A stretch of DNA of 64,000 nucleotides from Bdellovibrionia bacterium (GTDB lineage: Bacteria > Bdellovibrionota > UBA1018), in NCBI GenBank assembly GCA_049424145.1, contig JBMSSC010000001.1, forward strand, positions 16,017 to 80,016, in the 5' to 3' direction. A program made the position numbers and the translations under genes. This document shows positions 23,486-55,439 of the stretch, in pieces. Under the pieces are notes generated by a model, which ran no database searches, was not told where the DNA came from, and saw nothing but the letters and a program-made list of their open reading frames with translations. Numbering within the stretch: the first letter of the stretch is position 1; the number at the start of each line of letters is the position of its first letter.

Positions 23486-26469
23486 AGTTTAAAACCTCAT
23501 TCCTGTGTTATCGCTGACTTTGCCATGCTGGGGCTTTTGAAAAGTCGCGGCATGAGACGTCCGCCCTGAAGTGCGGAAGTTTCCAATTTTTTCCTCACTA
23601 TACAGGGCAAAACAAGAAACGACTATCTGAACTTGCAAGGATCACATCGTCAAGCAATTCAGCGAGGCATTTTCACTGCATTGGAAGGGCGTTGCTTTTT
23701 GGGGCTCAATTCGTGGGTCTTTAGGTCTGGGAGTCGTGCCATGAGGTGACTGGGGAAGGTTTTGAGCCCATTTGACCTCAATCAGAGGGATTGAAGGCGT
23801 CCAGGAACGGAGTGAATCATCTTTGAAAATCGCGTGTTCAGATCCAGAGATCCAGAGATCCTGTTCGTGTGCTCTGAGAGATTCCGGTTTAAGGTCTTGT
23901 TTTTAAAAGGATGGGGCATGACTAGTTGCTTCGATCCTTGATTGATTAGCTTATTTAATATATTATTAAAATGTAACTTAATGAGCAAAACTCGCTTGAG
24001 TTTGCGTGGGTTCGATTGGGCGGAATCGGCTTTGATTTCATGGGTTTTGGTTAGGGTAAGAATCCAAGGGTTGAAGGAGCGAATTTGAGAGAGTTTTTTG
24101 AAAAAAAGCGTCAAGACCAGCCCCAAAAGAGGGTTTTACCTTGGCTCGGGTTAGTCGTGATTGGGTTGATCTGTGGGTCAATTTCCTCTCAAGCATCTTT
24201 ATTTAATGTGATGTCGTTTCTCAAAACACAATGGGTGAATACTCCGTATAAGAGGATCACGGGAGGGGCTGGTGATTCTGGAGCTAATTCCCACACCTGT
24301 GGTCTCACGTTTCAGGGGCAACTCAAGTGTTGGGGTTGGAACTCCAGTGGGCAGCTTGGACTAGGAACGGTAGGAGTCGGAGTGAGTTCCCCGACGGCTA
24401 TTGGAACGCCTTCGTTCGTTTCAGTCGCAGGGGGGTATCGCCATACGTGTGGAATTACAGCTAATCGGACTCTTCGGTGCTGGGGGTCTGATTCTTACGG
24501 TCAGGTGGGAAATGGTTCGCTGACCACCGCGGATCAAGCGTCTCCCGTGGCGATTGATTCATTAACCCCTTATGGCACTGTTGCGGCGGGAGGGTATCAC
24601 ACCTGCGGAATTACTCAGGCTGGAGATCTTAAATGTTGGGGCTGGAACAGCTCGGGACAACTCGGAAATGGAAATCCTGCTTCCGATGAGGCTTCGCCTT
24701 TCGGAATTGATTCTGGGACTTCTTACATTGAGATTACTGCGGGTTATGCTCATACCTGTGGAATTACAGGGGCTGGAGTTTTAAAATGCTGGGGCCTGAA
24801 TTCCAGTGGGCAAGTGGGAAACGGGGTAGTCGGAGGATCTTCCACATCTCCTGTGGAGATTGACTCAGGGACACCCTATATCGCCGTTTCAGCGGGAGAT
24901 GCTCATACCTGTGGGATTACCGGCGCTGGAGTGTTAAAATGCTGGGGCTCGGATTCGAACGGCAAGTTAGGAAACGGAACCTTAACGTCGGCCGACCAGC
25001 CCTCACCTGTGGTGATTGATTCGGGGACAACCTATCTTGCAGTTTCTGCTGGTGTTGAGCATACGTGTGGAATTACGGGAAGTGGAGTGCTTAAATGCTG
25101 GGGAAGTGATGCGAACGGTCAGTTAGGCAATGGGTCCACCAGTGGGAATCAGTTCTCCCCAGTGGCGACTAATTCCGGGGCAAATTATGTCGGGATTTGG
25201 TCCGGACGAAATCATACGTGTGCGATCACCAGTCGGGGGGTGCTTGAGTGCTGGGGGAGTGATGCCTCAGGCCAATTAGGAAATGGTTCAACTTTGACTT
25301 CCGATGTCCTTTCCCCAGCATCCATTGATAAGGATAGGTTTCAAAAAGGCATCTATCAAAAAACGGCCACCTCGGGGGCCTTTACTTCGTGCGGGGTGAT
25401 GAATTCGGGTGTGCTCAGGTGCTGGGGGAGTGATGCATTTAGTCAGTTGGGCAACGGAGGGACAGGCAATCAGACGATTCCTCGAATCACAAACTCTGGA
25501 GAAATTTATCGACAAGTCTCTGTGGGAGGATATGAATCCAATAGCTCCCATGCTTGTGGCATAACAGGATCCAATCAACTCAAGTGTTGGGGGAGTAATA
25601 CATCTGGGCAGGTGGGGATTGGGAACACGGCGGGTCCAGTGACGACTCCTCAATTGGTCAACGATCCGGGCACCCGGTATCGAAAAGTGAGTTTGGGCTG
25701 TTCACACACTTGCGGAATCACGACTGCAGGTCAGCTCAAGTGCTGGGGATATAATGGCTTTAGGGAGTTGGGTGGTCGAACCGGAGATTTAACGTCCCCA
25801 GGGGTCGTGGATTCGGGGAGCACATATCGAGACGTAGGAATGGGGTGTGGTTTCGGCTGTGGCATTACCACTCGTGGAGAGTTGAAATGCTGGGGGCAAA
25901 ATACCTCGGGTCAAGTGGGTAATGGAACGAGTGGTAGCTCTCAGTCTACCCCTGTGGTCATTGATTCCGGGATGACCTACCGAGCGATTTCAGGGGGGTA
26001 TAATTTCGCCTGCGGGATTGCCGCGAGCGGAACTTTGAAATGTTGGGGAAGCGATAACGCTGGACAGGTTGGGAACGGGGCAACTACAGGAAACCAACTG
26101 ACGCCTCAGCCTGTTAATGACCCAGGTACTGTTTACTCGGTGATTGCTTCAGGGTTCTACTATGCTTGCGGAATTACGGGTGTGGGAGCCTTAAAATGCT
26201 GGGGAAGTGATTCTGCAGGCCAATTAGGAAACGGCGCTGCAGTGAGTCAAGACTCTCCCATGTTAAGTGATTCGGGGACCTTATACACCGAGGTTGGATC
26301 TGCCCTGGGTTCAGCTAATTGGGGTCACAGCTGTGGAATCACGGTTGGGGGAATTCTCAGGTGCTGGGGACGCAATAACTCTGGGCAACTGGGCATCGGT
26401 AACACCGCGAATCAAACTTCCCCCGTTGATGTGGTTCGTTAAGTGAGGCTGGGTGGCGTGAGCGCGCTT
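23239..26469. repeat. tandem duplication unit 1 (3,231 bp): 5' 247 bp of rlmE, the intergenic/promoter region and the RCC1-repeat gene
   Basis: Identical to 26470..29700. I checked both boundaries directly: …ccttggaaaaaa|taagcattgg at the upstream edge and gagcgcgctt|aataagcattgg at the internal junction. All ORFs recur at a constant +3231 offset with identical translations. Confidence 0.9.
24085..26442 (+). CDS. secreted or membrane-anchored RCC1-repeat protein (14 blades, probably two 7-bladed beta-propellers), copy 1
   Basis: TTG start 5 nt after aaggag. N-terminal KR-rich segment plus a hydrophobic helix (signal peptide or anchor). Fourteen ~50-aa repeats with consensus HTCGIT-G-LKCWG-N-SGQLGNG…SP--I-SG--Y. 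Confidence 0.85.
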   Translation: MREFFEKKRQDQPQKRVLPWLGLVVIGLICGSISSQASLFNVMSFLKTQWVNTPYKRITGGAGDSGANSHTCGLTFQGQLKCWGWNSSGQLGLGTVGVGVSSPTAIGTPSFVSVAGGYRHTCGITANRTLRCWGSDSYGQVGNGSLTTADQASPVAIDSLTPYGTVAAGGYHTCGITQAGDLKCWGWNSSGQLGNGNPASDEASPFGIDSGTSYIEITAGYAHTCGITGAGVLKCWGLNSSGQVGNGVVGGSSTSPVEIDSGTPYIAVSAGDAHTCGITGAGVLKCWGSDSNGKLGNGTLTSADQPSPVVIDSGTTYLAVSAGVEHTCGITGSGVLKCWGSDANGQLGNGSTSGNQFSPVATNSGANYVGIWSGRNHTCAITSRGVLECWGSDASGQLGNGSTLTSDVLSPASIDKDRFQKGIYQKTATSGAFTSCGVMNSGVLRCWGSDAFSQLGNGGTGNQTIPRITNSGEIYRQVSVGGYESNSSHACGITGSNQLKCWGSNTSGQVGIGNTAGPVTTPQLVNDPGTRYRKVSLGCSHTCGITTAGQLKCWGYNGFRELGGRTGDLTSPGVVDSGSTYRDVGMGCGFGCGITTRGELKCWGQNTSGQVGNGTSGSSQSTPVVIDSGMTYRAISGGYNFACGIAASGTLKCWGSDNAGQVGNGATTGNQLTPQPVNDPGTVYSVIASGFYYACGITGVGALKCWGSDSAGQLGNGAAVSQDSPMLSDSGTLYTEVGSALGSANWGHSCGITVGGILRCWGRNNSGQLGIGNTANQTSPVDVVR

Positions 26470-26716
26470 AATAAGCATTGGGCAAAGTCAGTTCAATGGC
26501 TTGAAGATCGACGCCCAGGAGTCGTCCTTTGGGTCCAATTCTCTCAGACGCATACTGAGACCAGGAGCCGGGTGCCGCACCTAAGTCCAGCATCTTTTGA
26601 GCGGGTTTGAAAACCTTAAAGCGCTCGTCGATCTCTTTGAGCTTAAAGATGGAGCGGGCGACATAGTTTTCCTTCTTTGCTTGGAGAAAATAATAGTCTC
26701 TTGGATCGTACGCCAC
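26468..26716 (-). pseudogene. truncated rlmE' fragment (first 82 codons) created by the tandem duplication
   Basis: Translation is identical to RlmE residues 1-82. A TAA is generated at the duplication junction. The promoter region is retained. Confidence 0.8.
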
Positions 26717-29700
26717 AGTTTAAAACCTCATTCCTGTGTTATCGCTGACTTTGCCATGCTGGGGCTTTTGAAAAGTCGCGGCATGAGACGTCCGCCCTGA
26801 AGTGCGGAAGTTTCCAATTTTTTCCTCACTATACAGGGCAAAACAAGAAACGACTATCTGAACTTGCAAGGATCACATCGTCAAGCAATTCAGCGAGGCA
26901 TTTTCACTGCATTGGAAGGGCGTTGCTTTTTGGGGCTCAATTCGTGGGTCTTTAGGTCTGGGAGTCGTGCCATGAGGTGACTGGGGAAGGTTTTGAGCCC
27001 ATTTGACCTCAATCAGAGGGATTGAAGGCGTCCAGGAACGGAGTGAATCATCTTTGAAAATCGCGTGTTCAGATCCAGAGATCCAGAGATCCTGTTCGTG
27101 TGCTCTGAGAGATTCCGGTTTAAGGTCTTGTTTTTAAAAGGATGGGGCATGACTAGTTGCTTCGATCCTTGATTGATTAGCTTATTTAATATATTATTAA
27201 AATGTAACTTAATGAGCAAAACTCGCTTGAGTTTGCGTGGGTTCGATTGGGCGGAATCGGCTTTGATTTCATGGGTTTTGGTTAGGGTAAGAATCCAAGG
27301 GTTGAAGGAGCGAATTTGAGAGAGTTTTTTGAAAAAAAGCGTCAAGACCAGCCCCAAAAGAGGGTTTTACCTTGGCTCGGGTTAGTCGTGATTGGGTTGA
27401 TCTGTGGGTCAATTTCCTCTCAAGCATCTTTATTTAATGTGATGTCGTTTCTCAAAACACAATGGGTGAATACTCCGTATAAGAGGATCACGGGAGGGGC
27501 TGGTGATTCTGGAGCTAATTCCCACACCTGTGGTCTCACGTTTCAGGGGCAACTCAAGTGTTGGGGTTGGAACTCCAGTGGGCAGCTTGGACTAGGAACG
27601 GTAGGAGTCGGAGTGAGTTCCCCGACGGCTATTGGAACGCCTTCGTTCGTTTCAGTCGCAGGGGGGTATCGCCATACGTGTGGAATTACAGCTAATCGGA
27701 CTCTTCGGTGCTGGGGGTCTGATTCTTACGGTCAGGTGGGAAATGGTTCGCTGACCACCGCGGATCAAGCGTCTCCCGTGGCGATTGATTCATTAACCCC
27801 TTATGGCACTGTTGCGGCGGGAGGGTATCACACCTGCGGAATTACTCAGGCTGGAGATCTTAAATGTTGGGGCTGGAACAGCTCGGGACAACTCGGAAAT
27901 GGAAATCCTGCTTCCGATGAGGCTTCGCCTTTCGGAATTGATTCTGGGACTTCTTACATTGAGATTACTGCGGGTTATGCTCATACCTGTGGAATTACAG
28001 GGGCTGGAGTTTTAAAATGCTGGGGCCTGAATTCCAGTGGGCAAGTGGGAAACGGGGTAGTCGGAGGATCTTCCACATCTCCTGTGGAGATTGACTCAGG
28101 GACACCCTATATCGCCGTTTCAGCGGGAGATGCTCATACCTGTGGGATTACCGGCGCTGGAGTGTTAAAATGCTGGGGCTCGGATTCGAACGGCAAGTTA
28201 GGAAACGGAACCTTAACGTCGGCCGACCAGCCCTCACCTGTGGTGATTGATTCGGGGACAACCTATCTTGCAGTTTCTGCTGGTGTTGAGCATACGTGTG
28301 GAATTACGGGAAGTGGAGTGCTTAAATGCTGGGGAAGTGATGCGAACGGTCAGTTAGGCAATGGGTCCACCAGTGGGAATCAGTTCTCCCCAGTGGCGAC
28401 TAATTCCGGGGCAAATTATGTCGGGATTTGGTCCGGACGAAATCATACGTGTGCGATCACCAGTCGGGGGGTGCTTGAGTGCTGGGGGAGTGATGCCTCA
28501 GGCCAATTAGGAAATGGTTCAACTTTGACTTCCGATGTCCTTTCCCCAGCATCCATTGATAAGGATAGGTTTCAAAAAGGCATCTATCAAAAAACGGCCA
28601 CCTCGGGGGCCTTTACTTCGTGCGGGGTGATGAATTCGGGTGTGCTCAGGTGCTGGGGGAGTGATGCATTTAGTCAGTTGGGCAACGGAGGGACAGGCAA
28701 TCAGACGATTCCTCGAATCACAAACTCTGGAGAAATTTATCGACAAGTCTCTGTGGGAGGATATGAATCCAATAGCTCCCATGCTTGTGGCATAACAGGA
28801 TCCAATCAACTCAAGTGTTGGGGGAGTAATACATCTGGGCAGGTGGGGATTGGGAACACGGCGGGTCCAGTGACGACTCCTCAATTGGTCAACGATCCGG
28901 GCACCCGGTATCGAAAAGTGAGTTTGGGCTGTTCACACACTTGCGGAATCACGACTGCAGGTCAGCTCAAGTGCTGGGGATATAATGGCTTTAGGGAGTT
29001 GGGTGGTCGAACCGGAGATTTAACGTCCCCAGGGGTCGTGGATTCGGGGAGCACATATCGAGACGTAGGAATGGGGTGTGGTTTCGGCTGTGGCATTACC
29101 ACTCGTGGAGAGTTGAAATGCTGGGGGCAAAATACCTCGGGTCAAGTGGGTAATGGAACGAGTGGTAGCTCTCAGTCTACCCCTGTGGTCATTGATTCCG
29201 GGATGACCTACCGAGCGATTTCAGGGGGGTATAATTTCGCCTGCGGGATTGCCGCGAGCGGAACTTTGAAATGTTGGGGAAGCGATAACGCTGGACAGGT
29301 TGGGAACGGGGCAACTACAGGAAACCAACTGACGCCTCAGCCTGTTAATGACCCAGGTACTGTTTACTCGGTGATTGCTTCAGGGTTCTACTATGCTTGC
29401 GGAATTACGGGTGTGGGAGCCTTAAAATGCTGGGGAAGTGATTCTGCAGGCCAATTAGGAAACGGCGCTGCAGTGAGTCAAGACTCTCCCATGTTAAGTG
29501 ATTCGGGGACCTTATACACCGAGGTTGGATCTGCCCTGGGTTCAGCTAATTGGGGTCACAGCTGTGGAATCACGGTTGGGGGAATTCTCAGGTGCTGGGG
29601 ACGCAATAACTCTGGGCAACTGGGCATCGGTAACACCGCGAATCAAACTTCCCCCGTTGATGTGGTTCGTTAAGTGAGGCTGGGTGGCGTGAGCGCGCTT
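26470..29700. repeat. tandem duplication unit 2 (3,231 bp), identical to unit 1
   Basis: It ends …gagcgcgctt, and the unique sequence resumes with taaaatcgtc at 29701. Confidence 0.9.
27316..29673 (+). CDS. RCC1-repeat protein, copy 2 (identical to copy 1)
   Basis: 785-aa translation identical to 24085..26442. Its own copy of the upstream region is included in the repeat. Confidence 0.85.
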   Translation: MREFFEKKRQDQPQKRVLPWLGLVVIGLICGSISSQASLFNVMSFLKTQWVNTPYKRITGGAGDSGANSHTCGLTFQGQLKCWGWNSSGQLGLGTVGVGVSSPTAIGTPSFVSVAGGYRHTCGITANRTLRCWGSDSYGQVGNGSLTTADQASPVAIDSLTPYGTVAAGGYHTCGITQAGDLKCWGWNSSGQLGNGNPASDEASPFGIDSGTSYIEITAGYAHTCGITGAGVLKCWGLNSSGQVGNGVVGGSSTSPVEIDSGTPYIAVSAGDAHTCGITGAGVLKCWGSDSNGKLGNGTLTSADQPSPVVIDSGTTYLAVSAGVEHTCGITGSGVLKCWGSDANGQLGNGSTSGNQFSPVATNSGANYVGIWSGRNHTCAITSRGVLECWGSDASGQLGNGSTLTSDVLSPASIDKDRFQKGIYQKTATSGAFTSCGVMNSGVLRCWGSDAFSQLGNGGTGNQTIPRITNSGEIYRQVSVGGYESNSSHACGITGSNQLKCWGSNTSGQVGIGNTAGPVTTPQLVNDPGTRYRKVSLGCSHTCGITTAGQLKCWGYNGFRELGGRTGDLTSPGVVDSGSTYRDVGMGCGFGCGITTRGELKCWGQNTSGQVGNGTSGSSQSTPVVIDSGMTYRAISGGYNFACGIAASGTLKCWGSDNAGQVGNGATTGNQLTPQPVNDPGTVYSVIASGFYYACGITGVGALKCWGSDSAGQLGNGAAVSQDSPMLSDSGTLYTEVGSALGSANWGHSCGITVGGILRCWGRNNSGQLGIGNTANQTSPVDVVR

Positions 29701-34868: not shown

Positions 34869-35237
34869 GTGGTTTGGGGTGGGCTCTTGCGCTTCCGTGA
34901 TGAGACGGAGATTGCGCCATTTTTGGGTTCAGATAGAATAAAACTCATGGTGAGCAGAATTCTTCCAATCTGGGTGGTCTTTGCTTTAGTGGTTTTTGCA
35001 ATTGGGAGCGTGTGGATTCGACTCCATATCATTCGAACCACCTATGCCATCAATGAGATGCATAGAAAAATGGAGCAAACCAAGCAAGATTCAGAACTGT
35101 TGCAAGTGAAGCTCTCGAGTCTGAAGTCTCCGAAGCATTTAGAAGCCTTGGCTCGGCGGAAGTTTGGTCTTCTGCAGCCGCGAATGGATCAGGTCATTCG
35201 CATGACCCAGTCGAAAGAAGCCCTTCATGGAACCTAA
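34869..35237 (+). CDS. ftsL: FtsL-like division protein (single TM + coiled coil)
   Basis: Small bitopic protein in the canonical slot between rsmH and ftsI. TM helix ILPIWVVFALVVFAIGSVWIRL followed by heptad-like sequence. The start may be the ATG at 34938. Confidence 0.5.
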   Translation: MVWGGLLRFRDETEIAPFLGSDRIKLMVSRILPIWVVFALVVFAIGSVWIRLHIIRTTYAINEMHRKMEQTKQDSELLQVKLSSLKSPKHLEALARRKFGLLQPRMDQVIRMTQSKEALHGT

Positions 35238-37353
35238 GGTGGAGGCTCAGATTTTCCCTGATGATTCGATCCGAAAACGCTTGGTGGTCACCTTAGCCAT
35301 TGGGGCGGTCTTCACCTGCTTGATCCTCGGGCGTGCTATTTTCATTCAGCTGATGAAACATCCCCGGTTAGAAGCCATGGCTTCTCGTCAGTACCATGCT
35401 CAATCCTTGGTTCAGCCCCGTCGAGGCGTCATTTTCGATCGAAACGGGGAGCGTCTTGCCGTGAGTGTGGATTCCTATAGTTTAGCAGCCAATCCTACTA
35501 AGATCCGAAAGCGCTGGATCTTAGCGCCCCTTTTAGCCAAGGCACTTCGCTCGAGCTCCTCACGATTGATGGAGAAGCTCAGTGAGCCTCGGGAGTTTGT
35601 TTGGATCAAACGGCAGTTGAGCGAGGCGGATCTCAGGGCGTTTAAAAAACTCTCACGCGTTGAATCGAATGATGATCTGCTCGAAGGCTTGTGGTTAGTC
35701 AAGGAAAGTAAGCGAGTTTACCCCCATGCCTCCCTTGCCGCGCATGTTTTAGGCGACGTAAATGTGGATTCAGATGGATTAGAAGGAGTTGAGCTTTGGC
35801 AAAATGAGCGATTGAAGGGAAAAATCCTCAGTGTTTCGGCCATTAAAGATGCCTTGGGTCGGCCAACTTTCATTGATGCAAAAGCCGCATCTCAACTCAC
35901 CGATGGCCAAAGTGTGAGTCTGACCTTGGACTCGGTTCTTCAGTATGAAATTGAGAGACTCCTCTCTGAGGCAGTTCGAAAAACGGGAGCCAAAGGGGGA
36001 TCCGTGATGGTGATGGATGCCCAATCCGGTGACCTGTTGGCTTTGGCCAATGAGCCCACGTTTGATCCCAATCAAAAGGGAATTCCCCTGGATCGTCGCC
36101 GAAACCGCGTGTTGACCGATGGCTACGAGCCGGGATCCACGATGAAACCCTTACTTCTTGCTGCGGCCCTCTCAAGTGGAATGAAGCTCAGTGATGAGTT
36201 GTGGGGAGAAAAAGGGAGTTTCATTTTACAAAAACGGAGGATTTCAGAAGCCGAGGCGCATGAAAAATTTGAGTGGATCAGCTTAAAAAAAATCATCCAA
36301 GTCTCCAGCAATGTGGGAGCTGCAAAGTTGGCCTTAAAAGTCGGAGCAGAGCGTTACTTGCAGGTTTTAAGAGCCTTTGGCTTGGGCGCAAAAACCGGAT
36401 CAGGGTTTCCGGGTGAGATTTCAGGCCGAATCCCGCCCAAAAAAGATTGGCAGCCTTTAACGCTAGCAAACATTGGCTTTGGTCAGGGCCTGCTGGTGAC
36501 CCCGATGCAGATGCTGAAGGCCTATGCCGTGTTTGCCAATGGGGGCTTTTTAGTGGAGCCCCATTTGATCCAAGCAGAGGCTCAGTCCAAGGATGAAAAA
36601 CCAGGGGCTCTTGCGCTGTCCCCTTTAAAAAAGCAGGTTCTCTCGCCTCAGGTCACTCAAGCTGTGGTGGAGGCCTTGGAGTCCGTCACTCAAAGCGGAG
36701 GCACGGCACAAAAAGCGGCAATGCCTGGCTACCGAATTGCGGGAAAGACAGGAACCGCTCAGGTGGTCGATCCTCACTCCGGGAAATACTCCCATGATCA
36801 ATACGTGTCCTCGTTCATTGGTTTTCCGGTGGGTTTGGACTCTTCGCTGGTGATCTTCACAGCCTTAAATGAGCCCAAAGGCGTCTACTATGCATCCGAA
36901 ACAGCAGTGCCCTTGTTTAAAGAGGTGCTCAGTGCGCTCATTCATCGCTACAGCTTGCCTGCGGAGCACGAGCCTGAGCTGTCGGTGAAGCCCGTGAAGT
37001 TGGCCAGTGCCTCTCTGTCTGCTCTGCGTTCATCCGGGGGGATGACCCAGGATGAACTTCATTGGACCCAAGCCTCGGTGCAGCAGGCGTCGTTGACCAA
37101 GGGGGACTCGCTGAGCTTAGGCGGATCTCTGCCTCGAGTCGTTCCCGTGCCCCAGACTGAGGACGTCAAACTGAGTCAATGGGTCATGCCCGATCTCCAA
37201 GGGCTTTCACCCAAAGAGGTGCTGGAAGTGCTTCAGGGCTATCCCTTTGCCCTGGAGATGAAGGGGATGGGGATGGTTGCTTCACAGACGCCGATGGCCG
37301 GTCAGCGGCTCTCCAAAAGAAGTCGAGTTCGACTGGTGTTTTCAGAACCTTGA
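35227..37353 (+). CDS. ftsI: peptidoglycan D,D-transpeptidase FtsI (PBP3) with a C-terminal PASTA domain
   Basis: PBP dimerisation and transpeptidase domains (SxxK STMKP, SSN, KTGTA). The last ~65 aa (VMPDLQGLSPKEVLEVLQG…) look like a PASTA domain. Confidence 0.85.
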   Translation: MEPKVEAQIFPDDSIRKRLVVTLAIGAVFTCLILGRAIFIQLMKHPRLEAMASRQYHAQSLVQPRRGVIFDRNGERLAVSVDSYSLAANPTKIRKRWILAPLLAKALRSSSSRLMEKLSEPREFVWIKRQLSEADLRAFKKLSRVESNDDLLEGLWLVKESKRVYPHASLAAHVLGDVNVDSDGLEGVELWQNERLKGKILSVSAIKDALGRPTFIDAKAASQLTDGQSVSLTLDSVLQYEIERLLSEAVRKTGAKGGSVMVMDAQSGDLLALANEPTFDPNQKGIPLDRRRNRVLTDGYEPGSTMKPLLLAAALSSGMKLSDELWGEKGSFILQKRRISEAEAHEKFEWISLKKIIQVSSNVGAAKLALKVGAERYLQVLRAFGLGAKTGSGFPGEISGRIPPKKDWQPLTLANIGFGQGLLVTPMQMLKAYAVFANGGFLVEPHLIQAEAQSKDEKPGALALSPLKKQVLSPQVTQAVVEALESVTQSGGTAQKAAMPGYRIAGKTGTAQVVDPHSGKYSHDQYVSSFIGFPVGLDSSLVIFTALNEPKGVYYASETAVPLFKEVLSALIHRYSLPAEHEPELSVKPVKLASASLSALRSSGGMTQDELHWTQASVQQASLTKGDSLSLGGSLPRVVPVPQTEDVKLSQWVMPDLQGLSPKEVLEVLQGYPFALEMKGMGMVASQTPMAGQRLSKRSRVRLVFSEP

Positions 37354-37403
37354 TGCTAGGCCTAAGAGGAGCGGTAGTCCTCTTGCCCGTCTCAAGGAGA
37401 TTT

Positions 37404-38915
37404 ATGCTGAAACCTCAATTGACTCAACTCACGTTAGTTCAACTCCTGGCGCTCTTACCGAAAGAAATCCTTTCTCCTCAAGATCCCAGCAGGCAAGCCC
37501 TTTTGCATGGCTCTGCTCAGGTCACAGGCGTGACCTCTGATTCAAGAGAAGTGAAGCCAGGCAGTGTGTTTGTGGCCATTTGTGGGGGCACTCAGGATGG
37601 ACATCAATTCATCGATTTAGCTTTAGAAAAAGGCGCCGTTTTTGTGGTCGGTGAGCAACCCATGCCCTCTTCGCAGCTCAAGGGAGTCTATCTCCAGGTT
37701 TCCGATAGTAGGGAGGCCTTAGCAGCCTTGGCCGCTCAATTTTTTCATCATCCCTCCGATGGGCTTTTGGTGCTCGGAGTCACCGGAACGAGTGGAAAAA
37801 CCACCACCACTTTTATTCTGGAGTCCATTTTAGCGGCAGCGGGGCATCGTGTGGGAATCATTGGAACCATTCACTTTCGTGTGGGCAACCAAGTCCTTCC
37901 TTCCACGCACACCACCCCGGGCGCAGCAGAGCTTCAAGGTCTTTTGGCGGAGATGAAAAACGCAGGCTGCACCGCCGTGGTGATGGAGGTGTCCTCTCAT
38001 GCTTTAAAGCAAAAACGAGTGGCATCCGTGGCTTTTGATGGCGTGGTGTTTACTAATCTCTCGCCTGAGCACTTGGATTTTCATCCTGACTTGGAGGATT
38101 ACTTTCAGTCCAAGGCCCTTTTGTTCACTGAGTGCATGAAGTTTTCTCAGTCTCGGGGGAAAAAGCCTGTCATGGCCATCAATTCAGAAGATGAACACGG
38201 CCATCGCCTCCTTCGCACTCTTGCCGCTCCCCACAGTGCGTTTTTACCTCAGCACGCTTTGCAGGTGAGCCCCAGTGGGATCTCAGGGCAGCTGGGTCCT
38301 GTGAAAGTGGAGTCGTCGTTTACGGGGCAATTTAATGGGTCCAACCTATCAGCTGCCGTGACGCTTGCTTTGGCCCTCCAAATCTCCATCCCCTGCATTG
38401 AGCGGGGAATCCGAGACCTCAAAGGGGTCCCTGGGCGTTTAGAGCGAGTCCCCAATGCTCGGGATATTCATGTTTGGGTGGATTATGCTCATAAGCCCGA
38501 TGCTTTAGAGAAGGTGCTCAAAACGTTATCTCTTTTGCGGGGGGGAAACCGCCTCATCACGGTTTTTGGGTGTGGCGGGGATCGAGACCGAAAAAAACGG
38601 CCGCTCATGGGGAGGATCGCAGCTGAAAATTCGGATTGGGTCTTTGTGACTTCGGATAACCCTCGAACCGAAGATCCTCAGGCCATTATGGATGAGATTT
38701 TGGCGGGAATGACGGGGCATTCGCATGTGAGTGTTGAGGTGGATCGAAAAACGGCCATTTTAAAAGCCGCTTGCTTGGCCCGACCCGGAGATCTAGTGGT
38801 GATTGCAGGAAAAGGCCATGAAACCTATCAAATCATGGGCACAACACGGGTGCACTTTGATGATCGAGAGGTGGCAGCCTGGGCCTTTGAGCAAAAAGAG
38901 CCAACCCAGGGCTGA
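37404..38915 (+). CDS. murE: UDP-N-acetylmuramoyl-L-alanyl-D-glutamate--2,6-diaminopimelate ligase
   Basis: Mur ligase P-loop GVTGTSGKTTT. DNPR motif (SDNPRTEDP) typical of MurE. I chose the ATG at 37404 rather than the track start at 37179, which overlaps ftsI. Confidence 0.9.
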   Translation: MLKPQLTQLTLVQLLALLPKEILSPQDPSRQALLHGSAQVTGVTSDSREVKPGSVFVAICGGTQDGHQFIDLALEKGAVFVVGEQPMPSSQLKGVYLQVSDSREALAALAAQFFHHPSDGLLVLGVTGTSGKTTTTFILESILAAAGHRVGIIGTIHFRVGNQVLPSTHTTPGAAELQGLLAEMKNAGCTAVVMEVSSHALKQKRVASVAFDGVVFTNLSPEHLDFHPDLEDYFQSKALLFTECMKFSQSRGKKPVMAINSEDEHGHRLLRTLAAPHSAFLPQHALQVSPSGISGQLGPVKVESSFTGQFNGSNLSAAVTLALALQISIPCIERGIRDLKGVPGRLERVPNARDIHVWVDYAHKPDALEKVLKTLSLLRGGNRLITVFGCGGDRDRKKRPLMGRIAAENSDWVFVTSDNPRTEDPQAIMDEILAGMTGHSHVSVEVDRKTAILKAACLARPGDLVVIAGKGHETYQIMGTTRVHFDDREVAAWAFEQKEPTQG

Positions 38916-38992
38916 GGCGTTGGGGACTTCAGCAGACCCGCACGTGTGGTAAACTCTTGACACCGGCTTTTAAAAATCTGTAGCATTCGGAG

Positions 38993-40069
38993 ATGCTCTT
39001 TCAATTTCTCTATCCGCTTCATGCGAAGTACTCAGTGCTTCATGTGTTTAAGTACATCACCTTTCGGAGTTTCGGTGCCAGCATCACGAGTCTTTTGATC
39101 TGCATGCTCATGGGCCCCTCCTTCATTCGCTTCCTTCAGAGAAAGCAAATGGGGCAGTCCATTCGGGATGACGGACCCAAAAGCCATCTCTCGAAAAAAG
39201 GTACACCCACGATGGGAGGGGGGTTAATTCTCTTTGGGATCGTTCTGCCGACTCTGCTTTGGTCGGATCTGGGAAATAAGAGCGTATGGATTGCTCTAGT
39301 GACCACGATTTTGTTTGGTCTCATTGGGTATGTTGACGATTACCGAAAAGTGATTCAAAAAAACTCCAAGGGCCTCTCCAGTCGTCAGAAGATTGTGAGT
39401 CAAACGCTGGTGGCCTTGGTGGCCGCTTACGTGATTTACGTCACTCGCGATACGCCCCCGGTTTTAAAGTTCCCGTTCTTTAAGGATTGGTCTTTTTATC
39501 TGGGTCTATTTTTTGTGCCCTTTGCTACGTTCGTGATCGTGGGTGCTTCCAATGCGGTCAACCTAACCGATGGTCTCGATGGCCTTGCTGTGGGTCCCAC
39601 CATCACCACTTCAGTCACGTTTCTCGTGCTCGCTTATTGCGCAGGGCATGTGAAGATTGCCGAGTACCTTCAAATTCCCTATGTGCCCGGGGCAGGGGAG
39701 TTAGCCGTATTCTGTGGCTCAGTTGCGGCTTCGTGCTAGGGCATTTTATGGATTAATACCTATCCTGCTCAAGTTTTTATGGGGGATGTGGGGTCGTTGG
39801 CTTTAGGTGCAGCCTTGGCTGTCGTTGCCGTGATCACAAAAAATGAAATCTTGCTTGCACTTTGTGGGGGAATTTTCGTAATTGAAGCCCTCTCGGTGAT
39901 GGCACAGGTGACGTCTTTTAAGATGACAGGGAAAAGGGTCTTAAGAATGGCGCCCATTCATCATCATTTTGAGCTAAAAGGGTGGGCTGAGCCTAAAATT
40001 ATTGTGAGATTTTGGATCATCTCGATTTTATTGGCCCTATTTACTCTCTCGACTTTGAAATTAAGGTAG
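38993..40069 (+). CDS. mraY: phospho-N-acetylmuramoyl-pentapeptide transferase MraY, interrupted by an in-frame TAG at 39737-39739 (possible pseudogene or base-call error)
   Basis: Track ORFs 38993..39739 and 39779..40069 are in the same frame. Codon-by-codon reading gives …[35 protein letters not shown]…, which is co-linear with the E. coli MraY motif …[26 protein letters not shown]…. The stop sits at the conserved Leu. Confidence 0.7.
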
Positions 40070-40084
40070 AGGAAACGTGAATTC

Positions 40085-41470
40085 ATGATGAGCAAGTATC
40101 AAGGTAAAAAAGTTTTAATTGTTGGCTTCGGCATCTCAGGGGTCGCCGTTGCCAAGTACATGTGTAAAAACGGCGCCCGAGTGCTGGTCGCCGATTCGAA
40201 GCAAAAAAATGAGCTGGCCGATTCCTTGGACGCCTGTGCCGGGCTTCCCATCGAGTATGAGCTCGGGTATCCCGCGAATAAACCGTTTCCAGTTGCCGAT
40301 CTCATTGTCCTGAGTCCAGGAGTGCCTCTGAGCATCAAAGGTTTAGAGGAAGCTCGTCAGAGGCAGACCCCGATCACCAATGAGATTGAGCTTGCGGCTT
40401 TAGAGATTCAGCAGCCAATTTTGGCTATCACGGGAACCAATGGGAAAACCACCACCACGACGCTCATCGGTGAGATGTTCAAGGCCGATGGAAAATCAGT
40501 ATTTGTGGGAGGAAACATTGGACAGCCCCTCTTGGATTACGTGACTCAGGGTCAAAAAGCCGATGTGGTGGTCGCTGAGCTGTCGAGCTTTCAACTCGAG
40601 CTCACCGAGAATTTAAAAGTCGCAGGGGCCGTTTTTACCAATCTCGAAGAGGATCACCTAGATCGCTACGGCGACCTGCACTCGTATGGAAACGCCAAGA
40701 AGCGTTTGCTTCGAGCCTGCAATTCACAGAGCTTTGTGGTGCTCAACTGGGACAACCCCAATGTGGCTCAGTTTGAAGCAGAATCGCCCGGTCAAGTGCT
40801 CTGGTTTATGAAGGGTGATCCCATGAAAGTGGGTGGCACTTTTGCGGAGAACTTTCGGGGAGCCTATTTCAACTCTCTGACGAAGAAGGTCATTTTTAGA
40901 AGCAAGGGCCAAGAATCGGTCTTTGATCTCTCCTCCTTTCGATTGTTTGGAGAGCATAATAAAGAGAATCTCATGGCCGCTATTTGCTTGGCTAAGGCTA
41001 TGGACGTGAGCGATGGAGCCATTCAATCGGTCATTCAGCAGTTCAAAGGAGTGAATCATCGCCTGGAGTTTGTGCGAAAAAAAGATGGGGTCTTTTTCTT
41101 CAATGACTCCAAAGGCACGAACGTCATGAGTGTTCAAAAGAGCTTGGCGTCGTTTTCCTCAAACCCGATCATTTTAATTGCAGGGGGGAAGGATAAGAAC
41201 GCAGATTTCACTCCTCTGGTGGACCTGGTGAAGAGGAAGTGTAAGATTTTAGTCCTCTTAGGTGAGGCGAAAGAAAAAATCAATCGAGCCATTGGTGATT
41301 ACGCTGAAACCTACCTGGTGGGTACTTTCGAGGAGGCAATTCTGCTCAGCTATCAAAAGTCCAGAAGCGGAGACATCATTCTTCTGTCCCCGGGTTGCGC
41401 AAGCTATGATATGTTTAAAAACTACGAAGAGCGGGGCAATTATTTCAAGAAACTCGTCTCCCAGCTTTAA
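40085..41470 (+). CDS. murD: UDP-N-acetylmuramoylalanine--D-glutamate ligase
   Basis: N-terminal Rossmann region (KVLIVGFGISG), P-loop GTNGKTTTT, MurD-type C-terminal domain. Confidence 0.9.
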   Translation: MMSKYQGKKVLIVGFGISGVAVAKYMCKNGARVLVADSKQKNELADSLDACAGLPIEYELGYPANKPFPVADLIVLSPGVPLSIKGLEEARQRQTPITNEIELAALEIQQPILAITGTNGKTTTTTLIGEMFKADGKSVFVGGNIGQPLLDYVTQGQKADVVVAELSSFQLELTENLKVAGAVFTNLEEDHLDRYGDLHSYGNAKKRLLRACNSQSFVVLNWDNPNVAQFEAESPGQVLWFMKGDPMKVGGTFAENFRGAYFNSLTKKVIFRSKGQESVFDLSSFRLFGEHNKENLMAAICLAKAMDVSDGAIQSVIQQFKGVNHRLEFVRKKDGVFFFNDSKGTNVMSVQKSLASFSSNPIILIAGGKDKNADFTPLVDLVKRKCKILVLLGEAKEKINRAIGDYAETYLVGTFEEAILLSYQKSRSGDIILLSPGCASYDMFKNYEERGNYFKKLVSQL

Positions 41471-41587
41471 GAGGAGAAGCGCTCAAGGGTTTGCAGGAGG
41501 AGGGACTCTCTGACCCACTTCAAACAGAGCTTTTGGCCGAATCGGAGTTGGAAAATCGACTGGAAGCTTTTTTTTCTAGTTCTAGCC

Positions 41588-42646
41588 ATGGTCGTTTTTG
41601 GACTCATCATGGTTTACAGCTCCTCGTTCATCTTAGCGCAGGAAAGAAGTGGGAACGGCTTTGCTTTGATTCGCAAGCAGCTTCTTTTTGCCATTTTAGG
41701 TTTTTTAGCCATGGCCGGTGCAATTCAGATGGACTATGGCCTCTGGAGGAAGCACGCTCCCTCCGTCTTAGCCGGTGCGGTTTTTCTTCTCTTCCTGGTG
41801 CTCTTGCCCGGCGTGGGGCATAAGGTGGGAGGAGCGCAGCGGTGGTTGAAGTTGGGTCCCGTTCGTTTTCAGCCAGCGGAGCTGGCGAAGTTTGCGATGA
41901 TCTTCTTTGGGGCCCGTTTTTTAGAGAGCCCACTGAGCTGGTCTCGCTTTTCCGATCCGAAGCGAATCGGAGAGGCCTTATTGTTTCTGCCTGCTTTTTT
42001 TCTGCTCCTCATTCAGCCTGATTTCGGAACAACGGTGATTATCGCCTTAGTTTTGTTTTTTATGGTCTTTGTTTCCGGGGTGCGTCCTCGAGCCCTGTTT
42101 GCTGTTTTTTTTCCCATCGCAGTGGGTGCGCTTCTGGTGGCCTTTGGAAGTGAGTACCGAAGGGCTCGTATCCGAACGTTTTGGGACCCTTGGCAAGATC
42201 CCGCAGGCAAGGGGTTTCAAATCCTTCAGTCCTTTGTGGGCCTCCATAATGGAGGGTTGTTTGGGGTGGGTTTAGGCAACAGTCGGGAGAAGCTCTTTTA
42301 TCTGCCTGAGGCTCACAATGATTTTATCTTCTCGGTGATTGGGGAGGAGTTGGGTTTTCTGGGGGTTTTTACCGTTGTTTTTGCTTATCTCTACTTGATG
42401 TTTAAGGGACTCAATATTGCCTGGAACTGCCAACGGAAAAAGCAAGATCGTTTTGGGATGCTTCTGGCCACAGGAATTACCCTGGCGCTGAGTTTTCAGG
42501 GGTTTGTCAATGCGGCTGTCGTGTTTGGGCTCTTACCCACCAAGGGCCTTGCCTTGCCGTTTTTAAGCTACGGGGGCTCCGCTCTGGTGGTGGATTTATT
42601 TGCGGTGGGCGTTTTACTCAGTATTGCTCGGAGTACGGAAGGATAG
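41588..42646 (+). CDS. ftsW: peptidoglycan glycosyltransferase FtsW (SEDS family)
   Basis: SEDS motifs (…IQPDFGT…, NDFIFSVIGEELGFLG, PTKGLALPFLSYGGSA). The reading frame is open back to 41471, so the true start may be a non-ATG codon upstream. Confidence 0.85.
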   Translation: MVVFGLIMVYSSSFILAQERSGNGFALIRKQLLFAILGFLAMAGAIQMDYGLWRKHAPSVLAGAVFLLFLVLLPGVGHKVGGAQRWLKLGPVRFQPAELAKFAMIFFGARFLESPLSWSRFSDPKRIGEALLFLPAFFLLLIQPDFGTTVIIALVLFFMVFVSGVRPRALFAVFFPIAVGALLVAFGSEYRRARIRTFWDPWQDPAGKGFQILQSFVGLHNGGLFGVGLGNSREKLFYLPEAHNDFIFSVIGEELGFLGVFTVVFAYLYLMFKGLNIAWNCQRKKQDRFGMLLATGITLALSFQGFVNAAVVFGLLPTKGLALPFLSYGGSALVVDLFAVGVLLSIARSTEG

Positions 42647-46103: not shown

Positions 46104-47495
46104 TTATTCTTTTGAGAATAAAACCTCTTTCACCTCTTTGGGTTGTACGCCTGAGGCTTGAATCAAAGCGGCTCTGAGTTTTTTTGAGGTAGCAAGCACT
46201 GAGATGGCAAGTTGATCGGGTTTTAAGAAGTGGTTCAGCGCCTGATTGACCTGAGGGAGAGTGAGCTTCCTGAGTTCAGAGGCAAACGACTGCATGAAGC
46301 CTGTTGGAAGCTTGAGAGTTTTCTCCAAGATCTTATTTTCAACCCGCTTTTTAGGCGTGTTGTAGGTGAATCCCGAGCTCTGGATGAGGCTTTGCTGGGC
46401 AAACTCAAACTGCTGGGGCGTGAGTCCATGCTCTTTCAGCTGGGAAATGAGCTGAAGGGAGTGTTTGAGGGCTGCTGCTGCATCCGCTTGGGCAGGGTAC
46501 AGGTGCACGATCCATGAGCGGGGTTCTGTTCCGTGTCGAAATTGGCTGGAAACCCCATAGCTCCAGCCGCGCTTCACTCGAATCTCCTCCATTAAAGTGG
46601 AGGAAAAGGAGGGTCCGCCAAAGGCATGATTGCCCAAGTAAAGGCTGAAGAAATCAGGATCCGTCATCTTCACTCCAATTTGTCCGATGTGGATCTGGGT
46701 TTGAGTGCGATCCGGTTTATCGATGATTAAAAGTCGTCTTGTTTGTGCGTTCTCAGGGCGCCCCAGGGGAGTGGTGAGTCCTAAAGATGCTGTTGTGTTT
46801 GGGGTTTGAGGGGTAGGCGTACTGAGGAGTTTTTGCAGACTCTCGCCTAGGGTTTTTGCCCAAGCTTGGATGGGTTCCACAGGAGAGTCGCCTGAGCCGA
46901 GAATGAAAAGAGAGTCCTCTTTTAAAAGGGCCCGGTGATGAGCGAGCACTTGCTCTCTTGTCATGGATTCAATGTCTGGGGTTCTTCCCAAAACGGAGCG
47001 GCCGTAGGGGTGGTCTTGAAAGAGGAATTGAGTGAAGCTTCGTGTGGCCAAGCTGGAGTCGTGGCCTTTTTCCTCTTGGATTCCCGCGATGATTTCAGCC
47101 TTGAGTTTATCGATCTCCAGTTGTGGGAAAGAGGGCTCCGTCAGGAGTTCGCGTAGAAGGCTTAAGAAAGGGTTCAGTTGACTCGAGAGGACAGCTCCCC
47201 TGAAAATCAATGCCTCAGCTCGGGTCTCCACCTCAAGCTTGGCTCCCCATTGATCTAAAGCTTGATCGATTTGTGCTTTATTCTTCGAGCGTGTGCCCCG
47301 AAGGAGCATCTCCCCCATGAAGTTGGTGAGACCCATTTGCCCCTGGGGGTCTTTCACCGATCCATGGTTGAGCACCACATTGAGGTAGACTAGAGGTAAA
47401 TTTGAATTCTTCTCAAAGTCGACTTCAAGAGCGTGGCCTAAAGTGGCGCTCAGGAAACAGAGATATCCCAGTAGTGTCAGCACCCAGGGTTTCAT
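46104..47495 (-). CDS. M16-family peptidase, non-catalytic-type subunit (no HxxEH)
   Basis: Signal peptide (LLGYLCFLSATLGHA). Pitrilysin-like fold, but the zinc-binding inverted motif is absent (…MGLTNFMGEMLLRGT…). It overlaps the upstream M16 gene by 4 nt. Confidence 0.8.
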   Translation of the reverse strand: MKPWVLTLLGYLCFLSATLGHALEVDFEKNSNLPLVYLNVVLNHGSVKDPQGQMGLTNFMGEMLLRGTRSKNKAQIDQALDQWGAKLEVETRAEALIFRGAVLSSQLNPFLSLLRELLTEPSFPQLEIDKLKAEIIAGIQEEKGHDSSLATRSFTQFLFQDHPYGRSVLGRTPDIESMTREQVLAHHRALLKEDSLFILGSGDSPVEPIQAWAKTLGESLQKLLSTPTPQTPNTTASLGLTTPLGRPENAQTRRLLIIDKPDRTQTQIHIGQIGVKMTDPDFFSLYLGNHAFGGPSFSSTLMEEIRVKRGWSYGVSSQFRHGTEPRSWIVHLYPAQADAAAALKHSLQLISQLKEHGLTPQQFEFAQQSLIQSSGFTYNTPKKRVENKILEKTLKLPTGFMQSFASELRKLTLPQVNQALNHFLKPDQLAISVLATSKKLRAALIQASGVQPKEVKEVLFSKE

Positions 47496-48922
47496 GTTCG
47501 AGATCCTTTCTTTTTGAGACGATTCTCAAGCTTTGGGGTCCCAACGATCACGGTGCGTTCGCGGGGCTGAAAGTAGCGTTGAGCAACGCGCTGAATATCA
47601 CGAGGTTTGAGTGCGTCGACGGCTTTTTGCAGCTGAAGCCCCGCCTGAAAATCTCCGTGAAGCGTTTCATGGTGTCCTAAGAACATGGCTTTTGAGAAGT
47701 TCGAGCTCAATCCCTCGTAGAAGCTAAAGTTGAACTTGTTCTTAGCCTTTTGCAGTTCCTGGGTTGAGATGAGCGAGGTTTGAAGAACCGACAACTCATT
47801 TAAAATCACCTTCTCCGCCTGCTCAGCTCGTTTTCCTTGTTGCAGGGTGGCAGAAATCACGAATAACGATGGGTCTTTATTTCCATAGTTTCCACAATCC
47901 ACAGCGCTTGCGATGCCTGTCTCCACAAGGGCTTGATTCAGGCGGCTGCTCTTACTGCCTGCTAAGAGGTTTTGTAAGACCTCCAGAGCGGCAGTGTCCG
48001 GGCTTTGGGCTTGAGGCGAGTGGTAGCCCATTAAGATTTTCTCAAGCTCGATGTTGAGCTTGAGTTCCTTTTTTCTAAAAGCCATCTGAGGAGGTTCTTT
48101 AGGAACAAAGTGCGGAAGATCCACCTCCGCATCCACAGATCCGTAATACTTCTGAGCAAGTTTGAGCACGTCCTGGGTGTTCACGTCTCCTACGACCACT
48201 ACGGTGGCATGGGCTGGACTATAGAACCTCCGGTAAAACGCCATCGCATCGGCTGGACGCATTGCGTTTAAGTCCTTCTCATAGCCGATCACAGGCCAGT
48301 GATAGGGGTGTCGTTTAAAAGCTAGATCAAAAAGACTTTCCTCAAGTGTTCCATCCTGACTATTTTCAGTTCTCAGTCGACGCTCGTTTTGAACGACCTC
48401 TCGCTCGGTTTTAAATCCCTTTTCGTCAATCACAAGCTGGGTCATTCGATCGGACTCAAGCTTCATGACGAGCTCAAGTTGATCTTTGGGGAGTTCCTGC
48501 ACGTAGGCCGTGTAGTCATGAGAAGTAAACGCATTTTCTCCTAAAACCCCTGCCTTTTCTAAAAGACGATCAAATTCGCCTGCCTTGTAATTCTTAGTTC
48601 CTTTGAACATCATGTGTTCAAAGAAATGGGCGAGGCCCGTCTTCCCCACTTGTTCGTCTTTTGAGCCCACCTTGAACCAGGTTTGATAAGCAAAAGTGGG
48701 AGATGCGTGATCTTCCAGAACTAGGATCTTCAGTCCATTGGCCAGATGGAACGTGGTCACTTTAAAATCCCCAACCAAAGGTTTCACTCCGGCCTCAGTT
48801 GAAACTGATTTTTCCTCTACAGCCTTTAAAGGAAGCTCAGCCGCTTCAGAAAGGGAGAAGAAAAATGTGCAGCAAAGCAGTTGCAGGAAGCCTAGCCAGG
48901 TTGCGCGATCGTTTTTATTCAT
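47492..48922 (-). CDS. M16-family zinc peptidase, catalytic-type subunit (HxxEH present)
   Basis: HFFEHMMFKGT inverted zincin motif plus downstream Glu. Signal peptide if translation starts at MNKND (48922). The track start at 48997 adds 25 residues. Confidence 0.8.
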   Translation of the reverse strand: MNKNDRATWLGFLQLLCCTFFFSLSEAAELPLKAVEEKSVSTEAGVKPLVGDFKVTTFHLANGLKILVLEDHASPTFAYQTWFKVGSKDEQVGKTGLAHFFEHMMFKGTKNYKAGEFDRLLEKAGVLGENAFTSHDYTAYVQELPKDQLELVMKLESDRMTQLVIDEKGFKTEREVVQNERRLRTENSQDGTLEESLFDLAFKRHPYHWPVIGYEKDLNAMRPADAMAFYRRFYSPAHATVVVVGDVNTQDVLKLAQKYYGSVDAEVDLPHFVPKEPPQMAFRKKELKLNIELEKILMGYHSPQAQSPDTAALEVLQNLLAGSKSSRLNQALVETGIASAVDCGNYGNKDPSLFVISATLQQGKRAEQAEKVILNELSVLQTSLISTQELQKAKNKFNFSFYEGLSSNFSKAMFLGHHETLHGDFQAGLQLQKAVDALKPRDIQRVAQRYFQPRERTVIVGTPKLENRLKKKGSRT

Positions 48923-49015
48923 GATGGCCTTTTTGCACCTCTTTTGGGTCCGTTCTCTGATCTCCCTAAGATATGCTCTCGCACATCTTTTGTCCAACAG
49001 GTAGAATCAAGACCT

Positions 49016-54020: not shown

Positions 54021-55439
54021 ATGCAGATACCAAGGATGGCTTTGCTTTTGAGTTTGACTCTCGGGGTCAGTCTCAGTTTTGGGCTGGGTCGTGTGAGCGC
54101 CGCTGATTTTAAACCAGGAGAGCTCATCGTGAAGTACAAAAGCGGAGCGATCCGAACGCGCGCTCAAGTGAATGCACTTTACCAAACTGTGGGAGTCAAA
54201 AGTGCCAATCACTTCTCGGGCGTGATGACTGGGTTTGATCACTGGATCTTGGATGAGGGGGTTAAGCTTCAGGACGCGATTCATGAGGTCAGTCAAAGTG
54301 AGCTCGTCGAATATGCTCAGCCCAACTACGTTCTGCATGTGCTTCCGATCGAAGACGAATCAGAGGATCCTGACTTCACCCCTGCACTTGCCGCTTTGGG
54401 GAAGTGCTGGTTTCCTGGGGTGAGTTTTCCCCCGGGTTGCGAGAAAAAAAGTGCAACTCAGCCTAAGCCAGGGGAGCTGGCTGATAGTCGGCCTGCACTT
54501 CAGGAACCACCGCTTGAGGTGATCCCTTCGTTAAAAGATCCTGATTTGAGTCGTGACTATGGCATGGCCAAGATTCGTGCCAATGAGGCCTGGGCTGTAA
54601 CTCGCGGATCCAAAGAGATCGTGGTGGCTGATATTGATACGGGAATTGACTATAATCATGAGGATTTGGCGTTCAATGTGTGGAGGAATCCTAATCCGGG
54701 AGAGAAGAACGACATCGTGGGATTTGATTTCGTCCATAATGATGGATTGCCATATGACGACAATGGACATGGCACTCACACAGCAGGAACGATTGGAGCT
54801 GTCGGAGGAAACGGGATAGGGACCTCGGGAGTGATTCAGAGGGTCTCCATCATGAGTCTTAAGTTCTTAGATGGGGACGGAAGTGGAACCACTGCCGATG
54901 CGATTCGAGCGATTGATTATGCCATTGAGCATGGCGCCAGGGTCTTGAGTAATAGTTGGGGTGGCCGTGGTGATCCAGATAATCCGGCTCTGAAAGAAGC
55001 GATTGATCGGGTTAAAGCAAAAGATGTGCTTTTTGTCGCAGCAGCCGGCAATGATGGAGTCGATAATGATGGTCCGAACGCGAGTTATCCTGCTGCATTC
55101 ACAACCGAAAACCTGATTTCAGTTGCGGCAACAGATGAGCGAGATGGTTTGGCCTCTTTCTCCAATTATGGAAAAAAGACGACCCACCTTGCAGCACCTG
55201 GAGTGAAGATCTACAGTACGGCTCCAGGGAGTCGCTATAAGAGTCTCTCGGGGACCTCCATGGCGTGTCCCCATGTGGCAGGCGCTGCAGCCTTGCTCTG
55301 GTCTATTCATCCAAACTGGGGCTATCAGAAAATTAAAGAGGTTCTTCTCGGTACCGTAGATCCGGTGTCCTCGCTTGCTCGAAAGACGATCACAGGTGGG
55401 AGGCTTAACGTGGGACGGGCCCTGAATTATTCTGAGTAG
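54021..55439 (+). CDS. secreted subtilisin-like serine protease (S8) with N-terminal propeptide
   Basis: Signal peptide. Catalytic triad motifs DTGIDYNHEDL, HGTHTAG and GTSMACPHVAGAAALL. Confidence 0.85.
   Translation: MQIPRMALLLSLTLGVSLSFGLGRVSAADFKPGELIVKYKSGAIRTRAQVNALYQTVGVKSANHFSGVMTGFDHWILDEGVKLQDAIHEVSQSELVEYAQPNYVLHVLPIEDESEDPDFTPALAALGKCWFPGVSFPPGCEKKSATQPKPGELADSRPALQEPPLEVIPSLKDPDLSRDYGMAKIRANEAWAVTRGSKEIVVADIDTGIDYNHEDLAFNVWRNPNPGEKNDIVGFDFVHNDGLPYDDNGHGTHTAGTIGAVGGNGIGTSGVIQRVSIMSLKFLDGDGSGTTADAIRAIDYAIEHGARVLSNSWGGRGDPDNPALKEAIDRVKAKDVLFVAAAGNDGVDNDGPNASYPAAFTTENLISVAATDERDGLASFSNYGKKTTHLAAPGVKIYSTAPGSRYKSLSGTSMACPHVAGAAALLWSIHPNWGYQKIKEVLLGTVDPVSSLARKTITGGRLNVGRALNYSE

Follow-up and report, generated by a model that had tools for sequence, protein, structure and literature searches.

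A premature amber codon in mraY of a Bdellovibrionia MAG is probably a local four-base consensus error

Introduction

MraY is an essential cell-wall protein of the family PF00953 (Glycos_transf_4), and a stop codon in the middle of its gene raises the question of whether it reflects the biology of the organism or the way in which its sequence was obtained. Such a codon, an in-frame TAG, is present in the mraY gene of a Bdellovibrionia bacterium (contig JBMSSC010000001.1), within the 64,000-nt stretch of DNA analysed here and referred to throughout as the window. The initial annotation of this DNA offered several explanations, the first being a base-call or assembly error, followed by a population polymorphism, a second intact mraY elsewhere, and amber suppression or readthrough. 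Here we compare the gene with its homologues and with an independent assembly of the same locus, and weigh these explanations against each other.

An amber codon within a cluster of deviant bases

The gene, its internal stop and the bases that accompany it are positioned as follows.

38993-40069, plus strand: mraY (phospho-N-acetylmuramoyl-pentapeptide transferase), 358 codons including the internal TAG, recognized by TIGR00445, homologues and synteny
39737-39739, plus strand: internal TAG, codon 249 of mraY; TTG (Leu) in contig L089 of the independent assembly (see below) and in the closest relatives
39738-39752, plus strand: four deviant bases, recognized by mismatches with L089, by the codons of relatives and by residues never seen in homologues

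The reading frame starts with an ATG at 38993 and ends with a terminal TAG at 40067-40069, and the region around the internal stop (39734-39757) reads TGC TAG GGC ATT TTA TGG ATT AAT. With the stop masked, the translated product matches TIGR00445 with 430.7 bits (cut-off 192.05) across profile positions 2-321 of 321. We aligned it with its 120 best database matches, which derive from Bdellovibrionota/Oligoflexia MAGs, are at most 87% identical to it, and are nearly all 358 aa long. All 120 have leucine in the column occupied by the stop, and the 109 mraY codons that follow are fully conserved with the frame preserved. The initial annotation was therefore correct in reporting a TAG at codon 249 of 358 and in placing it at a conserved leucine.

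It had also treated the TAG as a lone anomaly, and overlooked that two neighbouring residues are deviant as well. Residue 251 is isoleucine (ATT, 39743-39745) at a position where 120 of 120 homologues have phenylalanine, and residue 254 is also isoleucine (ATT, 39752-39754) where 118 have phenylalanine and two have tyrosine. The stop, Ile251 and Ile254 are the only residues of this MraY that are absent from all 120 homologues, and the probability that three randomly placed residues fall within six codons is about 5e-4. Of 180 columns with at least 97% conservation, 176 are kept; three of the four exceptions form the cluster, and the fourth is Ile336 (39998-40000), a valine in 117 of the 120 homologues. 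With only these four deviations at 180 conserved columns, we found neither relaxed constraint nor multiple independent lesions along mraY. MurD, given the same treatment as a control, has 15 never-seen residues that are scattered along the protein, and two deviations at 163 conserved columns. On this comparison the three altered residues of MraY are the product of one event and not of ordinary divergence.

The DNA of the closest relatives reads TGT TTG GGC TTT TTA TGG TTT/TTC AAT, from which it follows that one T>A substitution each, at 39738, 39743 and 39752, accounts for the residue anomalies. A single T-to-A change, as put forward initially, thus accounts for codon 249 itself; it does not describe the event, which comprises four substitutions within 15 nt and, being so tightly grouped, points to one artefactual event. 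The fourth deviant base, at 39742, emerges from the comparison with the independent assembly.

An independent assembly of the same locus lacks the stop

Logan provides an independent k-mer assembly of the Illumina NextSeq run SRR30952021, and its contigs are built at k=31 with k-mers seen once discarded (PMC12424806). A search with the MurD sequence of the window recovered 100% identical matches in MFZ9594496.1 (an NCBI MAG protein of a Bdellovibrionia bacterium, encoded on a 96,266-nt contig that is probably the source of the window) and in a Logan contig of SRR30952021, and a look-up of the 503-aa MurE product retrieved a second contig from the same run. The two contigs, and the genes used to find them, are positioned in the window as follows.

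36933-39751, plus strand: Logan contig L089 (SRR30952021_158359), 2,819 nt, with the 3' end of ftsI, murE and mraY codons 1-253
37404-38915, plus strand: murE, 503 aa, with an ATG behind AAGGAG; its product is on record in Logan
39752-39761, plus strand: gap of 10 nt between L089 and L088; the 40 31-mers that touch it are in neither contig
39762-41870, plus strand: Logan contig L088 (SRR30952021_31562), with mraY codons 257-358, murD and the 5' end of ftsW
40085-41470, plus strand: murD, 461 aa; its product is identical to MFZ9594496.1

The 2,109 nt of L088 agree with the window throughout (100% identity). L089 differs from it at exactly three positions, having T at 39738, G at 39742 and T at 39743 where the window has A, C and A, so that the two contigs together show three mismatches within 6 nt and none in the remaining 4,925 nt. 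L089 reads TGC TTG GGG TTT TTA TGG (Cys-Leu-Gly-Phe-Leu-Trp), and its frame is open through codon 253. Since the 2,805 nt that precede the cluster, with the end of ftsI, murE and the intergenic spacer among them, are identical in L089 and the window, the contig represents the same locus in the same strain and not a paralogue. L088 carries the same Ile336 as the window, showing that the contig comparison separates real lineage-specific changes from artefacts; Ile336 is, by this test, a real and conservative lineage-specific change. The T at 39738 (TTG) that the initial annotation said reads would show if the stop were a sequencing error is effectively what is found, by assembly in L089 rather than by a read pile-up.

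Because Logan keeps only 31-mers seen at least twice, the intact codons must be present in two reads or more. The Logan contigs reveal the intact allele, and are not of a kind that can show the A/C/A/A allele to be absent from the reads. The bases at 39738, 39742 and 39743 are compared directly, while 39752 lies outside both contigs, and a T there is taken only from the TTT/TTC of relatives. At 39742, the GGC of the window (codon 250) is also the codon of the closest relatives and L089 has GGG, so that either the C of the window or the G of L089 may be the derived version. The conclusion that the stop is almost certainly not the real sequence of this strain rests on the comparison with L089.

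Other searches gave less information. Neither MurD (461 aa), nor the N-terminal product of mraY (248 aa), nor its C-terminal ORF (96 aa) had an exact match on record, and the gene position index does not contain the genes of the source MAG. The best among the matches listed in a genome-contig search with MraY is 77% identical, and a pattern scan of metagenome contigs with N at the three deviant sites gave no matches. A protein search with MraY residues 130-248 recovered only fragments of up to 89% identity, with no piece from the same strain among them.

The third T>A site is the nucleotide directly after the end of L089 at 39751, and L088 resumes at 39762. The 40 missing 31-mers were either seen at most once or lie in a short branched piece, and in either case no sequence that spans 39752-39761 has unambiguous support from at least two reads of SRR30952021. 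With contigs ending every ~2.5 kb, the chance of an end falling so near the cluster is about 1-2%.

A probable route to the error

We consider it very probable that the TAG is a sequencing or assembly artefact, a local four-base consensus error at a weakly supported spot in the MAG, and the comparison with L089 favours this first of the options originally listed. The mraY gene of the organism is, in all likelihood, intact and reads TGC TTG GGG TTT TTA TGG TTT AAT (Cys-Leu-Gly-Phe-Leu-Trp-Phe-Asn), in which case the wrong bases in the MAG contig would be 39738 (T>A), 39742 (G>C), 39743 (T>A) and 39752 (T>A), all within 15 nt. Two marks of an artefact are both present: an independent assembly lacks the TAG, and the differences are confined to a tight cluster. 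The type of error also fits the platform, which is NextSeq for SRR30952021; the MAG appears to derive from this run or its sister samples.

The sample behind SRR30952021, one of 28 runs of PRJNA1171802 (SRP537959), is freshwater from the Atchafalaya River Delta, collected on 30 May 2018 (PMC12334582). Sequencing was done on an Illumina NextSeq (PE150) and assembly with metaSPAdes 3.15.4, and the MAGs of that study were also generated from random 1-50% subsets of the reads and by a subtractive scheme (PMC12334582). From the sequence identities described above we infer that the MAG containing the window was built from this data set. In the two-colour code, A is read as red plus green, C as red, T as green, and G is dark (PMC5374548). 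Each of the four changes puts the complementary base in place of the original one and amounts to a gain of red signal, with the change at 39752 deduced from relatives; on reverse reads they correspond to a loss of red signal. If each of the three alternatives at a site has the same likelihood, four complement-type changes have a probability of about 1%, which rises to about 6% when errors are restricted to a single channel. The red-channel account of the four changes is a post hoc reading of this pattern. The site at which they occur is itself unusual in composition.

39737-39754, plus strand: G/T stretch, in its repaired form TTGGGGTTTTTATGGTTT, with G or T at 17 of 18 positions and almost no red-channel signal

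Counted together with its A/C counterpart, such a stretch occurs at 20 places in the 64 kb, of which this is one, and makes up 0.13% of 18-nt windows.

A plausible sequence of events is that the strain was present at low coverage in a two-colour Illumina NextSeq metagenome, and that one or a few reads acquired spurious red-channel calls in the G/T stretch, such that green plus red turned T into A and dark plus red turned G into C. The correct reads would then have lacked solid k-mers bridging the cluster, and metaSPAdes may have kept the erroneous path as the only link while clipping the correct one as a short dead end. The red-channel and tip-clipping steps of this route are presumptive.

Consensus errors in MAGs create internal stops that PGAP flags as pseudogenes. 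The mraY case resembles the consensus errors of low-coverage short-read MAGs in three ways: one disabling lesion interrupts an essential gene whose remainder is perfectly conserved, the lesion is absent from an independent assembly of the same reads, and it lies at a break in the k-mer graph. It differs in that four substitutions occur together and share the signature of one channel, whereas the usual error is a single miscall or a homopolymer indel. With the channel errors of two-colour (NextSeq/NovaSeq-type) instruments it shares T>A and G>C as the products of spurious red signal in a red-dark, G/T-only stretch; the best-known artefact of that chemistry, however, is poly-G from loss of signal, and a burst of red gain that reaches the consensus is our reading of the present case.

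Three other mechanisms were considered and rejected. Template switching or quasi-palindrome correction is not supported, as no inverted or direct repeat of at least 8 nt within 300 nt covers the derived bases; the fold of the derived cluster sequence is slightly less stable than that of the repaired one. Mutagenesis of the type caused by diversity-generating retroelements (DGR) would call for a template repeat and a nearby reverse transcriptase, and the window contains no second copy of 39651-39850; moreover, one of the four changes is at an adenine on neither strand. A systematic error of long-read sequencing, suggested by the 3.2-kb tandem duplication described below, does not apply to a run of NextSeq PE150 reads assembled with metaSPAdes.

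Alternative explanations

A real null allele of mraY could have arisen by one multi-nucleotide mutation, such as error-prone lesion bypass, and be carried by part of the population and picked by the assembler. Some reads must carry A/C/A/A, since this version was assembled, and the unresolved Logan graph at 39752-39761 also fits two haplotypes. We nonetheless regard such an allele as improbable. A null mutation in an essential single-copy gene should not reach a frequency visible at the level of an assembly, and since murE, murD, ftsW, murG, murC and murB are all intact, the organism evidently uses its peptidoglycan pathway. Over 4.9 kb the flanks are identical, all four changes fit one instrument channel, and there is no repeat of at least 8 nt, inverted or direct, within 300 nt that could template the derived bases. 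A related reading, in which the TAG haplotype is both real and common and its cells survive by low-level amber readthrough or suppression of this essential lipid I synthase, or as a defective subpopulation dependent on wild-type neighbours or, the lineage being Bdellovibrionota, on prey-derived precursors, seems to us highly improbable. The initial annotation had further suggested that this mraY might be a tolerated pseudogene, with L089 on that reading coming from a second intact copy elsewhere. We find this very hard to credit: the 2,805 nt of L089 upstream of the cluster are 100% identical to the window and place the contig at this locus and not at a paralogue, the gene has no other sign of decay (176 of 180 conserved columns being kept), and relatives carry one mraY, at this position.

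Functional recoding would have the TAG read by an amber suppressor tRNA, by pyrrolysine machinery or through programmed readthrough, yielding full-length MraY. The preserved frame and the 109 fully conserved codons beyond the stop agree with this, as does the in-frame TAG itself, and in these respects the gene resembles known cases of amber suppression, pyrrolysine insertion or reassignment. It differs from them in that TAG is here a normal terminator, that the internal TAG is unique to this assembly, and that the strain has TTG. Among the other ORFs surveyed in the window (54 in all), 15 terminate in TAG, and three of these are the neighbouring dcw genes ftsW, murG and murB, in which it falls exactly at the ends of the NCBIfam profiles. 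This confirms the earlier view that codon reassignment is unlikely, and the TAG stops noted then at 7150-7152 and 7985-7987 are correct. None of the other genes examined in the window is interrupted by an in-frame TAG, and the 64 kb contain no tRNA and, in a search for structured RNAs and recoding signals, no Rfam match at gathering score. Recoding also leaves the altered invariant phenylalanines (251 and 254) beside the stop unexplained. With TTG at codon 249 in the same strain and leucine in 120 of 120 homologues, the suppression or readthrough once proposed is unsupported, and we consider recoding scarcely conceivable. The mraY TAG is thus almost certainly not a case of recoding or suppression, a pseudogene, or a real biological feature.

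If the TAG is a local consensus error, as we favour, a spurious mraY pseudogene has probably entered the public MAG record, which matters mainly for quality control; surveys of essential-gene loss or stop-codon recoding in uncultured Bdellovibrionota would miscount this mraY. A practical check is to find the exact product of a neighbouring gene in independent per-run assemblies and to compare the DNA. Clustered complement-type changes (T>A, G>C) in a G/T-only stretch are a warning sign in two-colour Illumina data.

Gene order around mraY and other features of the window

The dcw genes of the window are arranged in the order PBP, rsmH, ftsL, ftsI, murE, mraY, murD, ftsW, murG, murC and murB, and the segment from murE to murB (murE-mraY-murD-ftsW-murG-murC-murB) is common to the window and its relatives. 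In the ORF list, ftsI (35227-37353) and murE (37179-38915) overlap by 175 nt; with the ATG at 37404 taken as the start of murE, the two genes no longer overlap. Only a 78-nt spacer, with no murF, separates murE from mraY (37404-40069), and the same is true of all close relatives examined (L081-L087). The absence of murF from this position is therefore a trait of the lineage, and the gene must be elsewhere. Two M16-family peptidase genes (46104-48997, minus strand) lie inside the cluster between murB and ftsQ, and the pair is conserved there in three relatives (L081, L086 and L087). The window has ftsZ immediately after ftsQ and lacks an intervening ftsA.

The segments 23239-26469 and 26470-29700 form a head-to-tail tandem duplication of 3,231 bp with 100% identity. 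Each copy contains the first 247 nt of an FtsJ/RlmE-type methyltransferase gene (22844-23485, minus strand) and a large ORF.

24085-26442: 785-aa RCC1-repeat ORF of one duplication copy
27316-29673: 785-aa RCC1-repeat ORF of the other duplication copy

A short-read assembler cannot count the copies of a 3,231-bp repeat, which puts the number of copies, and possibly the existence of the duplication, in doubt. A look-up of the 785-aa RCC1-repeat product in Logan returned no record, and in one relative (L087) ftsJ directly adjoins mreB with no RCC1 gene.

Two further ORFs, of 696 aa (20074-22164) and 277 aa (7154-7987), have no Pfam match at E<=0.001. The stretch from 20 to 22 kb has a strongly negative AT skew (-0.35). 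A pair of tandem paralogous subtilases (Peptidase_S8, with a fervidolysin-like prodomain) is encoded at 54021-55439 and 55578-57020, and the two genes are about 73% identical over ~340 nt.
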